A stretch of 9,341 nucleotides of DNA from a virus (IMGVR_UViG_2913147268_000001:1-9341); one strand, 5' to 3'; shown: positions 1-9,341, counted from the first letter of the stretch. Made by a program: numbers and translations. Notes: a model not told the origin generated them from the sequence alone.

Positions 1-768
1 CTACGTGCGTTTTTCCGGGTCATAGTTTGACGGCACCTGGATGATGCGACCGCGGATATGGTAGTTCACCGTCATCTGCTGGCCGCCGAACTGCTCCGCA
101 TCCACCTGCAGCCCCACAATGGCCGTGTTCGGGTAGCACTGTTTCACATCGATGATTTCGGTGTATGACGACCACAGCGTCTTATTCTGCAGCTGGTCCG
201 TGGTGCTGTCCGCCGTCTCCCTGACCATCCGGATGTTAAAGGGCCGGGGAGGCAGATTATCCAGAATCACCGAGGCCAGGAACTGTGAGGTGGTCTTGCC
301 GTTAATGGTGACGTCCTTTTCTGTCACCCAGTTACCGTTACGCTGTAACTGAATCAGCAGGCGGACGGATGCCGGGTTACGGTCACCCTTTGAGGTGGTC
401 TCCACCAGTGACTGCACCCCGAAGGTAACCCGCAGGCGGTCAATGTTCGCGGACGTAATGGTGCGCGTCACCGGTTTTGCCTTCGTCACTTCCACGCCCA
501 GTCCGGTTTCAGCTCCGGAGGACTCAAAGCCTTCCGGTGGTGTCTGCTCCTGCTCCCCGGCGCGCCAGACCGCCGTCACACCGTGTATCACGGGATTGCC
601 GTCCGTGTCCGTCAGTGGGGTTTTGTTCACCAGAATACTCTGCAGTCCCTTCACCGGACCTTCTATCGGTCCCTCACCAATCGCATCAATCACACTCATC
701 ATCTGCGTGGATTTGAGATTATCCTTCGCCTCACGAGGCGTGTGTGCCTTACCGCCACCTTTTCCCAT
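1..768 (-). pseudogene. J: Host specificity protein J (tail tip), N-terminal 255-codon fragment, divergent allele
   Basis: Minus-strand ORF MGKGGGKAHTPREAKDNLKSTQMMSVIDAIGEGPIEGPVKG... is collinear with lambda gpJ residues 1-255 but clearly divergent from the lambda-identical J N-terminus at 6769-6930. ATG at 766-768; in-frame TAG at 1-3 where full-length J would continue. Sequence upstream of the ATG (769 onward) is not gene I. Confidence 0.8.
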
Positions 769-871
769 ACAGCCTTCCCCTGAATAAATTAACCGCCACT
801 TGCCATTCCGTACAGAAGTCGGATATCCTTCGCCCGAAAAGCATGAAACACATTTCTGCCATGCTAAAGAG

Positions 872-906
872 AAACCCCGGTATCAGCAGATACCGGGGTT
901 TTCTTT
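872..906 (+). terminator. Intrinsic terminator-like hairpin, possibly bidirectional
   Basis: 9-bp perfect stem CCCCGGTAT(875-883)/ATACCGGGG(890-898), 6-nt loop, then TTTTCTTT on the plus strand; the flanking AAA gives a weaker U-tract on the minus strand. Confidence 0.5.
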
Positions 907-978
907 CATGCCCACCGATAATCCTGTTGGTTAAAACCGGTAATGGCATAAAAATTCTGAATATCTTCACATTTTCAC

Positions 979-2235
979 ATACAGTTTGAGTTCTGGTTCT
1001 CGGAAAAGCGGATTGCGGATATCAGGCAGGTTGAAACCGCAGCCCGCTATCTTGGCTCGGCGCTGTACTGGATAGCTGCCAGTATCAATATCAAACCGGG
1101 CCATGATTATTATTTTTATATCCGCAGTGTGAATACTGTTGGCAAATCGGCATTCGTGGAGGCTGTCGGTCGGGCGAGCGATGATGCGGAAGGTTACCTG
1201 GATTTTTTCAAAGGAGAAATCGGGAAAACACATCTGGCCCAGGAGCTGTGGACGCAGATTGATAACGGTCAGCTTGCGCCGGACCTGGCTGAAATCAGGA
1301 CGTCCATTACGAATGTCAGCAATGAAATCACGCAGACCGTCAATAAAAAACTGGAAAATCAGAGTGCGGCAATCCAGCAGATACAGAAAGTTCAGGTTGA
1401 TACAAATAATAACCTGAACAGCATGTGGGCCGTGAAACTGCAGCAGATGCAGGACGGACGCCTTTATATTGCGGGTATCGGTGCCGGTATTGAGAATACG
1501 CCAGCAGGAATGCAGAGTCAGGTGCTGCTGGCGGCAGACAGGATTGCGATGATTAATCCTGCGAATGGCAACACAAAGCCGATGTTTGTTGGTCAGGGCG
1601 ATCAGATATTTATGAATGAAGTGTTCCTGAAATATCTGACGGCTCCCACCATTACCAGCGGCGGTAATCCTCCGGCATTTTCCCTGACACCGGACGGGCG
1701 GCTGACGGCGAAAAATGCCGATATCAGCGGTAACGTGAATGCGAACTCCGGGACGCTCAACAACGTCACGATTAACGAGAACTGTCGGGTTCTGGGAAAA
1801 TTGTCCGCGAACCAGATTGAAGGCGATCTCGTTAAAACAGTGGGCAAAGCTTTCCCCCGGGACTCCCGTGCACCGGAGCGGTGGCCATCAGGAACCATTA
1901 CCGTCAGGGTTTATGACGATCAGCCGTTTGACCGGCAGATTGTTATTCCGGCGGTGGCATTCAGCGGCGCTAAACATGAGAAAGAGCATACTGATATTTA
2001 CTCCTCATGCCGTCTGATAGTGCGGAAAAACGGTGCTGAAATTTATAACCGTACCGCGCTGGATAATACGCTGATTTACAGTGGTGTTATTGATATGCCT
2101 GCCGGTCACGGTCACATGACACTGGAGTTTTCGGTGTCAGCATGGCTGGTAAATAACTGGTATCCCACAGCAAGTATCAGCGATTTGCTGGTTGTGGTGA
2201 TGAAGAAAGCCACTGCAGGCATCACGATTAGCTGA
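979..2235 (+). pseudogene. J: Host specificity protein J, C-terminal fragment (roughly lambda aa 781 to end), lacks N-terminal ~780 aa
   Basis: Frame opens at 961 with no plausible start. Translation [79 protein letters not shown] is near-identical to lambda gpJ, then continues as a divergent C-terminal domain ending ...[14 protein letters not shown]; TGA at 2233-2235. Confidence 0.85.
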
Positions 2236-2253
2236 ATTTTATAACCCAGATAC

Positions 2254-2280
2254 GGGCGCCAGAAATGGCGCCTTTTTTAT
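2254..2280 (+). terminator. Rho-independent terminator downstream of J
   Basis: 7-bp stem GGCGCCA(2255-2261)/TGGCGCC(2266-2272) with GAAA tetraloop, followed by TTTTTT (2273-2278). Confidence 0.6.
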
Positions 2281-7622: not shown

Positions 7623-8356
7623 GGCTCACTTTCACCTTCACGCCGTCGGTGACGGACTGAACCTCCACGCTGACCGGACTCCCCTGCCCGTCAACCAGGC
7701 TTATCAGCGTGGTGCCGGAAGATGGCAGCGTGATTTCACGGTCGAGCGTCAGCGTCCGGGTCTGGCTGTTTACCGCCAGCACGCGCCCGCCGGTGCGGAT
7801 ACCGGCATAGTCATCATCGCAGATTTCAATGACATCGCCCGGTACATGGCGAAGCCCTTCGGCACCCACGCTGAAGTCCACGGTCTGCGTTTCCAGCAGT
7901 TCTGTTTTAATCAGCCACAGCCCGGCGCGGTGTGCCTGCCCCCGGCTGGTACAGCCAAAAGCATCCATCTTCGTGACGTTACGACCGTAACGGGCAATGG
8001 CCTGCGTGTCCTCCACAAGCTCTGTCGCCGTCTCCCAGCCGTTATTCGGGTCAATCCAGTTCACCTCAACGGCATTATGGCGGTCCTTCAGGGCGCTGAA
8101 GCCGGTCCTGCACGAACGTCAGCGTCTGCCCGTTCCATACCGGCATACAGCGCATCGCAGAGCAGAAATCACTGAGCACATCCCACGCCTTGCGCTGTGT
8201 GGTCAGCCAGGCATTACAGGTGATGCGCGGCTCCGTGCCGCCAAAACCGTCCGGCACCGACTGATCGCAATGCTGGCCGATGACATACAGCGCCCATTTG
8301 TCCACATCCGCCGCACCAAGACGTTTCCCCATGCCGTAGCGCGGATGGGTCAGCAT
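7623..8356 (-). pseudogene. J: J internal fragment (roughly lambda aa 305-545) with a ~75-80 bp internal deletion and frameshift
   Basis: Minus strand reads MLTHPRYGMGKRLG...TLTFVQDR (8356 down to ~8104), then with a frame change FSALKDRHNAVEVNWIDPNNGWETATELVEDTQAIARYGRNVTKMDAFGCTSRGQAHRAGLWLIKTELLETQTVDFSVGAEGL...VKVKVSR, all matching lambda gpJ. The PSDKTWTYNRSNVVMPDDGAPFRY stretch is missing. Confidence 0.85.
8101..8356. repeat. Inverted duplicate of the J aa 305-390 segment (partner 6513-6768)
   Basis: Reverse complement of 8101-8356 aligns base-for-base with 6513-6768 with about 10 substitutions, mostly third-position, plus two clustered changes giving Y to H and Y to W. Both copies begin at the same ATGCTGACC and end at the same CAGGACCG. 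Confidence 0.85.
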
Positions 8357-8558
8357 GGCACTGAACAGCCGATCGTAACCGCTGAATGCATCCGCCTGCA
8401 GGATACCCCGGAAGGGACGAAGGTGTTGTACCGGATGTTTTCCCTGCCTGTCTGGTGAGTAGGCGAACCAGACCGCCGGTGGCTCTGATGAGCCCGCATT
8501 CCGGTCATCCCGGACATACGTCCAGATGCGTCCTGTTTTTGCCTTTTTTCTGCCCGGT
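8357..8558 (-). mobile_element. tnpC: IS66-family transposase (TnpC) internal fragment
   Basis: Minus-strand translation ...PGRKKAKTGRIWTYVRDDRNAGSEPPAVWFAYSPDRQGKHPVQHLRPFRGILQADAFSGYDRLF matches the conserved core of IS66-family TnpC; it runs directly into the J fragment at 8356. Confidence 0.75.
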
Positions 8559-8850
8559 GTGTTGCCCGGAGTGTGGCAGTGAGCTGGATTATCTGGGTGA
8601 AGTCAGTGCTGAGCAGCTGGAACTGGTGAGTAGCGCCCTGAAAGTGATCCGCACTGTTCGGGTAAAAAAAGCCTGTACAAAATGTGACTGTATAGTTGAA
8701 GCGCCAGCGCCGTCCCGCCCGATAGAGCGCGGCATCGCGGGCTCCGGATTACTTGCCCGCGTGTTAACGGGAAAATACTGCGAACACCTGCCACTGTATC
8801 GTCAGAGTGAAATCTTTGCCCGACAGGGTGCCGAACTGAGCCGTGCATTA
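8559..8850 (+). mobile_element. tnpC: IS66-family transposase (TnpC) zinc-finger region fragment
   Basis: Plus-strand translation CPECGSELDYLGEVSAEQLELVSSALKVIRTVRVKKACTKCDCIVEAPAPSRPIERGIAGSGLLARVLTGKYCEHLPLYRQSEIFARQGAELSRA matches IS66 TnpC; opposite strand to the flanking tnpC pieces. Confidence 0.8.
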
Positions 8851-9095
8851 CGACGCAGTTTTTCAGAACGGGTACCGAACAGCATCCGGCGCAGTTTTTC
8901 TATCTGAGCCCGCAGATGTTCTATTTCCCGTTCATCTTCTTCGATCTTTTCTTCGGCACGTGTCAGTGCAGAGCGCAGGAAGGCTTCCGTCTCTTCAACC
9001 AGACTCAGTTGCTGGTCTTTCTGACGGAGGGCTTCAGCCTGCTCAGAGAGCAACCTTTCCAGCTCTGCGATGCGAATGAGGTATTTCTGACTCAT
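8851..9095 (-). mobile_element. tnpC: IS66-family transposase (TnpC) N-terminal fragment (aa 1-~80)
   Basis: ATG at 9093-9095 (minus). MSQKYLIRIAELERLLSEQAEALRQKDQQLSLVEETEAFLRSALTRAEEKIEEDEREIEHLRAQIEKLRRMLFGTRSEKLRR is the leucine-zipper N-terminus of IS66 TnpC; homology ends near 8851. Confidence 0.8.
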
Positions 9096-9125
9096 GACCG
9101 TTTTTATAATGCGGTCAGGAGTTTT

Positions 9126-9341
9126 TTACAACATTGTCAGTGAGTTACGGCTGGATGTTTTTGGCTGACGCCAGTCCAGCTTATCGAGGAGCATTGCCAG
9201 TTGCGAGCGGGTAATGGATACCTTGCCGTCACGTACCGCAGGCCAGATAAACTGGCCTTCCTCCAGGCGTTTGGTGAACAGGCACAGACCATCAGCATCA
9301 GCCCAAAGAGTAAGCGTAAACTGACCGCCGTATGTAGCCAT
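9126..9341 (-). mobile_element. tnpB: IS66-family accessory gene (tnpB/orf2) 3' portion, cut by window edge
   Basis: Minus-strand translation ...LWADADGLCLFTKRLEEGQFIWPAVRDGKVSITRSQLAMLLDKLDWRQPKTSSRNSLTML matches the IS66 TnpB C-terminus. Stop at 9126-9128, about 30 nt upstream of the tnpC ATG, which is the native tnpB-tnpC arrangement. Confidence 0.8.

Follow-up and report, generated by a model that had tools for sequence, protein, structure and literature searches.

The stretch of DNA considered here, IMGVR_UViG_2913147268_000001:1-9341 (9,341 nt; "the window" means the whole of this stretch), carries pieces of lambdoid tail genes and of insertion sequence (IS) elements in a scrambled order. 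It is an exact substring of the GenBank record CP027851.1 (541874-551214 of a 5,199,428-nt contig, assembly GCA_003999775.1), which is deposited as one 5.2-Mb chromosome of Escherichia coli C4435, with the block at 0.54 Mb. C4435 is an adherent-invasive E. coli (AIEC) strain, O25:H4, from Mexico in 2010 (PMC9503490, Table 2), and the O25:H4 type agrees with the sequence type 131 (ST131) references used below. The RefSeq collection of complete genomes does not contain this record.

The window was resolved by local BLAST against fetched reference loci, namely an ST131 prophage at trp/ompW (L001), a second ST131 prophage (L012), a Gp2/zinc-ribbon island (L013), IS1 (L014), IS4 (L015), the yeeU region (L016) and two IS66 copies (L017 and L018). 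It falls into 21 fragments of 134-1703 nt with 20 internal junctions between them, and a further junction lies between positions 1 and 2 (Table 1), which is in line with the about 20 breakpoints counted in the original prediction. Matches of at least 98% identity span the whole window except position 1 and positions 6514-6766, the latter being a third allele of J with 96% identity to L012. The fragments originate from lambdoid prophage tail modules (two or three), IS1, IS4, IS66, the Gp2/zinc-ribbon island and the yeeU antitoxin region. Those that were checked for copy number (IS1, IS4, IS66, yeeU and the J alleles) were all multi-copy, and the region of F14 occurs in 5-8 places per ST131 genome.

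Every piece named in the original prediction has the same order, identity and strand in the BLAST map: the J N-terminus (minus), the J C-terminus with the lom N-terminus (plus), the middle of stf (plus), L, K and I (plus), IS4 (plus/minus), IS1 (minus/minus/plus), the middle of J (plus), the J N-terminus (minus), the stf start with the lom C-terminus (minus), the middle of J (minus) and IS66 (minus/plus/minus). The three stretches it had left unassigned could be identified. Of these, 4676-5558 consists of two fragments of the inovirus-Gp2/zinc-ribbon island, and 6933-7160 holds the beginning of a YeeU-family antitoxin gene with the sequence upstream of it. The third, 769-979, turned out to be the native intergenic region between I and J; it runs on into the J N-terminus, so no breakpoint lies there. 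Alignment to the references showed no collinear L-K-I-J-lom-stf module of full-length genes on one strand, and J is split into six pieces that represent three alleles and lie on both strands. As for the alignments themselves, stf is on the minus strand of L012 and the match of F3 is reversed, and the BLAST alignment of F11 has a mismatch within its start (6313-6315).

Table 1. Fragments of the window in 5' to 3' order, with their strand and closest reference or partner. Prophage A is the ST131 trp/ompW type.
Fragment	Content	Position	Strand	Match or relation
F0	Last base of a 648-nt IS66 tnpC piece in the source record	1..1		L017 857-1504 aligns up to window position 1
F1	I-J intergenic region and J codons 1-255, prophage A	2..979	-	100% to L002
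F2	J C-terminus and lom N-terminus, prophage A	980..2682	+	100% to L001 21927-23629
F3	stf middle, prophage B type, in frame	2683..3181	+	100% to L012, two overlapping pieces
F4	L C-terminus, intact K, I N-terminus, prophage A	3182..4675	+	99.5-100% to L001, L005, L006 and related loci
F5	Upstream region and start of inovirus Gp2-family gene	4676..4955	-	100% to L013 2682..2403
F6	Gp2-family C-terminus and zinc-ribbon protein N-terminus	4956..5558	+	100% to L013 3001-3604
F7	Internal piece of IS4 transposase gene insG, sense	5559..5763	+	99.0% to L015 2592..2384
F8	Internal piece of IS4 insG, antisense	5764..6022	-	99.6% to L015 2001-2262
F9	Internal IS1 piece	6023..6156	-	First 56 nt are the last 56 nt of native neighbour F10
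F10	Internal IS1 piece	6157..6315	-	100% to L014 3446..3288
F11	Internal IS1 piece	6316..6513	+	99% to L014 3001-3201
F12	J middle, third allele	6514..6767	+	Bubble partner of F17
F13	J start, ~55 codons, prophage B	6768..6932	-	100% to L012 7480-7645
F14	Upstream region and N-terminus of YeeU-family antitoxin gene	6933..7160	+	98.7% to L016
F15	stf start and lom C-terminus	7161..7622	-	Its final 56 nt match those of F2 in reverse complement
F16	J middle, prophage B	7623..8102	-	100% to L012 6001-6481
F17	J middle, prophage B	8103..8356	-	Bubble partner of F12; matched to L012
F18	Internal IS66 tnpC piece	8357..8560	-	100% to L017 2501-2705
F19	Internal IS66 tnpC piece, opposite orientation	8561..8850	+	99.7% to L017 3113..2823
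F20	IS66 (ISEc23) tnpC start and tnpB piece	8851..9309	-	Shares its final 56 nt, inverted, with the far end of F21
F21	Starts at IS66 terminal inverted repeat GTAAGCG	9310..9341	+	Runs on to 731 nt in the source record

The junctions are blunt, with microhomology at chance level. Among the 21 junctions, 12 share no base, eight share 1 nt and one shares 2 nt, where random blunt joining predicts 11.8, 5.9 and 3.3, and with microhomology not above chance the junctions do not have the character of template switching of the kind seen in microhomology-mediated break-induced replication or fork stalling and template switching (MMBIR/FoSTeS). Microhomologies of 15 nt (3167-3181) and 9 nt (6924-6932), which the BLAST ranges seemed to give, are not real; a base-by-base check shows mismatched alignments. 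A single junction, 9309/9310, is at an IS terminus and the other 19 of the 20 lie elsewhere. IS1, IS4 and IS66 are all cut internally, as had been claimed for the transposase genes, and the accompanying argument, that transposition or an invertase cannot cut and invert such genes internally, is sound. No target-site duplications were found at the junctions, which speaks against IS-mediated rearrangement, and no crossover motif is conserved across them, which speaks against an invertase or shufflon. The only inverted repeats returned by a repeat finder in the window are a 56-nt overlap in lom and the J allele pair, and no recombinase open reading frame (ORF) was mapped within it. A chimera made by restriction and ligation (Hi-C-like) was ruled out, as no site is common to the junction sequences.

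Megablast with the whole window gave matches in 5,419 of 5,426 complete RefSeq E. coli genomes, many with at least 99% identity. None of the 5,426 holds at least 80% of the window in one place, and neither does any of 50,697 phage records. The same threshold was not reached in any complete E. coli genome by the sub-windows 4676-6513, 5540-6040, 6760-8400 and 6900-7200. For sub-window 8340-9341 two records exceeded 80%, each by joining 3-4 separate pieces of 90-97% identity. The junctions were searched with a composite query of 24+24-nt probes for the 20 junctions, each half being too short to seed megablast, and all 20 were without a match in the 5,426 genomes, which include many of ST131; a 40-nt native piece, added as positive control, matched thousands of records and ranked first. 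Single-junction 40-mers were likewise absent from viral_contigs, genome_contigs (GTDB representatives) and metagenome_contigs (JGI).

A length of 56 nt recurs throughout the region. We listed all exact repeats of at least 40 nt in 20.5 kb of CP027851.1 around the window and found five of 56 nt, one of 57 nt and one of 47 nt. The 57-nt repeat is the overlap between the IS66 pieces F20 and F21, that is 56 nt plus one chance or ambiguous junction base, and the 47-nt repeat sits inside the J bubble described below. Only one canonical 57-mer is repeated in the 20.5 kb and no 58-mer is, although the region contains many IS pieces and three alleles of J. A real locus of 12.9 kb that carries IS26 twice (L020), used as a control, has 768 repeated 57-mers and 625 repeated 200-mers. 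The overlap between fragments that are native neighbours is constant in 3 of 3 pairs, lom (F2/F15), IS1 (F9/F10) and IS66 (F20/F21), at 56 nt, with F20/F21 measured as 57. In lom it joins 2627-2682 with 7567-7622, exact and inverted, and in IS1 6023-6078 with 6260-6315, also exact. Furthermore, F12 and F17 are two alleles of one 254-nt interval of J with 10 mismatches, and these are confined to positions 57-198, which leaves 56 identical nt at both ends.

In a graph of 57-mers, the allelic branches of a bubble share k-1 bases at either end, and unitig sets, unlike genomes, have their repeat length capped at k-1. Since the repeats are capped at 56 nt, and the native overlaps and the bubble flanks are 56 nt as well, the fragments are contigs of a de Bruijn graph with k=57, built from multi-copy DNA. 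A k of 55 (SPAdes) with a chance extra base was ruled out, because six independent measurements give 56. The native gaps between near-neighbour fragments are 8, 74, 117, 121, 171 and 318 nt (F16-F17 74 nt, F7-F8 121 nt, F5-F6 318 nt), which is what absent short branch unitigs would leave.

Several fragment ends are also contig ends in independent draft assemblies. F1 coincides with the draft scaffold L002, from its first base up to its N-gap, and six draft contigs (L005-L009 and L011) stop at the same base as F1, at codon 255 of J. The truncated J product of 255 aa is recorded only on short draft contigs (at most 4.1 kb), on several of which the gene reaches the contig end. The 3' end of F2 is the last base of three drafts (L002, L003 and L004) and stops precisely at the ISEc12 insertion site in lom; L001 continues natively from there into the IS terminus, and F15 spans the site without interruption. 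A coincidence with such contig ends or with repeat boundaries was found for F1 at both ends, for F2 at its 3' end, for F21 at its start and for the flanking contigs where they end in IS1 and IS26. The fragment ends would be branch points of the graph, located at IS termini, at sites of IS insertion or at the first single-nucleotide polymorphism (SNP) between paralogous copies, and this would be why the transposase and tail genes look cut at odd internal positions.

The flanks of the window in CP027851.1 are of mixed origin. To the left, 3.4 kb (537676-541063) are 100% identical to iucD-iutA of IncF plasmids of 105-140 kb and end about 56 nt into IS1. This stretch is followed by a 170-nt gspK/IS4-edge piece and then by the 648-nt IS66 piece that ends at window position 1. 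To the right, the complete F21 is followed by 414 nt (~551914-552327; reverse complement of L019, 14239-14652) that do not match the fetched reference loci and are presumably one or two more small contigs, and then by a chromosomal contig that begins about 56 nt inside IS26, beside yehI and a truncated DUF4132 gene. Together the small pieces occupy about 541064-552327 (11 kb). As plasmid, repeat and chromosomal contigs abut, this part of CP027851.1, at the least, is a pseudo-molecule made of draft contigs that were concatenated. The scrambled order is present in the deposited sequence and is not a rearrangement in the bacterium.

Taken as a whole, the window is almost certainly no biological locus and consists of short-read contigs from a k=57 de Bruijn graph that were concatenated bluntly into a pseudo-chromosome. 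The original prediction had named three candidates without choosing between them: that stacked prophages and IS copies had decayed to an extreme degree, that the assembly was chimeric, or that fragments had been shuffled deliberately. The second stands, in the form of blunt contig concatenation, and the other two do not, because the 56-nt regularities, the draft contig ends, the absent junctions and the mixed plasmid and chromosome flanks together argue for an assembly artefact. A short-read assembly with k = 57 would yield short contigs (unitigs) wherever sequence could not be placed, here the collapsed or allelic segments of multi-copy tail genes, IS1, IS4, IS66 and CP4-like island repeats. 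These contigs would then have been joined end to end, bluntly and without N spacers, in arbitrary order and orientation. It is likely that the single sequence was made by contig ordering or "finishing" after the assembly, also without N spacers, possibly with a reference-guided pseudomolecule builder that dropped the Ns and appended the unplaced contigs. The clustering of the fragments by element may come from node numbering or from repeats having been placed by similarity.

Some points weigh against this explanation. The assembler, the value of k and the concatenation step are deduced only from the sequence itself, and we found no description of the assembly method of C4435 in the literature; the one paper found to cite the accession gives none, and neither does a paper on sister strains. 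The order is not fully random, because consecutive fragments often belong to the same element (F5/F6, F7/F8, F9-F11, F16/F17 and F18-F21), F16 and F17 even having the same orientation. Moreover, a 51-nt duplication in stf is joined with a 5-nt overlap and not bluntly, which simple concatenation fails to explain.

The runs of fragments from one element are what a local walk through the graph would give, and a chimera made by the assembler itself, through a wrong walk in a repeat tangle or a faulty hybrid or scaffolding bridge and with no later concatenation, would be expected to carry the same k-mer signature. A walk via k-1 overlaps, however, gives seamless native k-mers, whereas the joins here are blunt, each 56-nt overlap is retained twice, in two fragments that lie far from each other, and the sequences of the junctions occur in none of the complete genomes searched. 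F5/F6, F7/F8 and F1/F2 lie head-to-head, which contradicts paired-end scaffolding, and plasmid and chromosomal contigs are abutted, so that we regard such a chimera as very unlikely. An even smaller chance is left for a genuine "graveyard" in C4435, in which stacked lambdoid prophages and IS copies were broken and inverted by IS-mediated or illegitimate recombination or by template switching. It is true that all the pieces are mobile-element DNA, which accumulates and decays together, that insertions of IS66 and IS21 in K and lom occur in ST131 prophages, and that the sequence stands as such in a GenBank chromosome record. Biology, however, offers no reason why overlaps and allele flanks should measure exactly 56 nt in six instances, or why no exact repeat should be longer than 57 nt. 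Neither the 19 junctions away from IS termini, the lack of target-site duplications and the chance-level microhomology, nor a plasmid flank that ends 56 nt into IS1, fit such a history, and the same applies to junctions that are missing from all the complete genomes searched and to fragment ends that match independent contig ends. For the whole 11-kb block, a real, massively scrambled locus of mobile DNA is essentially excluded.

Blunt joins and random orientation also look like ligation or scripted shuffling, and deliberate shuffling, be it an in silico decoy or an in vitro DNA shuffling or ligation concatemer, was considered for that reason. The window is nevertheless an exact substring of a public GenBank record with proteins annotated across its junctions, and shuffling of one locus gives neither three J alleles, nor 56-nt overlaps, nor ends that match draft contigs. 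Random genomic fragments would be expected to hold mostly single-copy core genes, and of the fragments that were checked for copy number, all of them multi-copy, none is core DNA. This is the least probable of the explanations, with a chance close to nil.

The blunt contig concatenation proposed here is best compared with other concatenated-contig pseudo-molecules, of the type that arises when draft contigs are ordered along a reference and the unplaced ones are appended, all without N spacers. As in these, whole contigs are joined bluntly, repeat contigs lie in arbitrary orientation, plasmid and chromosome contigs share one record, short repeat-derived contigs form clusters and chimeric ORFs occur at the joins. 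The window differs in that the block lies at 0.54 Mb and not at the end of the record, and in that neighbours are partly ordered by element. The 56-nt native overlaps and bubble flanks, the ends at IS termini and paralogue SNPs and the lack of any repeated 57-mer, save the one with a chance junction base, are those of de Bruijn unitigs and bubbles, although unitigs are usually kept as separate FASTA records and are here fused into one sequence. The tail fragments are 96-100% identical to genes of the lambda-type tail tip module L-K-I-J-lom-stf in the real ST131 prophages L001 and L012, but order, strand and integrity are lost and at least three J alleles are interleaved.

Inverted segments in tail-fibre regions are known from invertases and shufflons (Gin/Cin/Pin/Min and Rci), and the real prophage L001 has a recombinase-family pseudogene near its tail-fibre genes that recalls such systems. 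Unlike these, the window has no conserved crossover sites at the junctions and no invertase, and its inversions run through J, K-I, the transposases of IS elements and islands unrelated to them. Decayed genomes rich in IS elements, such as those of Shigella, and chromoanasynthesis-like switching share with it the many breakpoints in mobile DNA and the duplicated and inverted segments. Where IS elements mediate real events, the breaks lie at IS ends and target duplications remain, and template switching leaves microhomology. Neither hallmark is seen here, and neither process yields a constant 56-nt overlap.

The duplication in stf, within F3, is an in-frame tandem duplication of 51 nt or 17 codons (2903-2953 and 2954-3004), bounded by a CGTCA direct repeat. 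Counted as an exact repeat, it measures 56 nt (2903-2958 and 2954-3009), which, oddly, is again k-1. Its junction (2953/2954) is absent from the 5,426 complete E. coli genomes, which rules out a known polymorphism, and a blunt join of two unitigs with a 56-nt overlap is ruled out as well, since 112 nt would be expected and 107 nt are observed. The duplication could be a real strain-specific event or an artefact of a loop in the graph. The read set of C4435 seems to have held both an ISEc12-interrupted and an intact lom with 100% identical flanks, which would mean that two prophage tail regions are nearly identical or that the population was mixed. Real C4435 biology inside the artefact, meaning a genuine stf duplication and coexisting intact and interrupted lom, is nonetheless given only a very slight probability. 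There are at least three J alleles (603-771, 6514-6767, 6768-6932 and 7623-8356), of the L001 type, of the L012 type and the third with 96% identity to L012, which suggests that C4435 probably carries three or more lambdoid prophages.

The window thus offers no new biology, and its value is that of a data-quality warning on CP027851.1 and the chimeric proteins derived from it. A published core-genome phylogeny has included the record as a "complete genome" (PMC9503490, Table 2). Core SNP trees are probably little affected by the artefact, but structural analyses would be, and anyone who relied on the record to study synteny, prophage content, the insertion sites of IS elements or the integration of plasmids would be misled. 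The embedded aerobactin genes iucD-iutA, for their part, could pass for a chromosomal integration of the aerobactin locus. In genome scans, a constant k-1 overlap together with the lack of repeated k-mers makes a quick test for such artefacts that needs no reads.

The annotation of CP027851.1 has put two chimeric proteins that each span a junction into public databases, AZU41265.1 ("tail assembly protein", window 4320-4706, plus strand) and AZU41266.1 ("hypothetical protein", 5803-6327, minus strand), for which the locus tag C7H11_02940 is given. Each occurs on this contig alone among ~15 billion proteins, and AZU41266.1 forms a singleton cluster. The window itself starts at a minus-strand TAG stop that is made across the junction (c|ta, positions 1-3) and truncates the J ORF, and it ends (9339-9341) at the ATG of a chimeric ORF of 71 aa. 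With this TAG and ATG at its ends, the limits of the window follow gene calls on the concatenated sequence.

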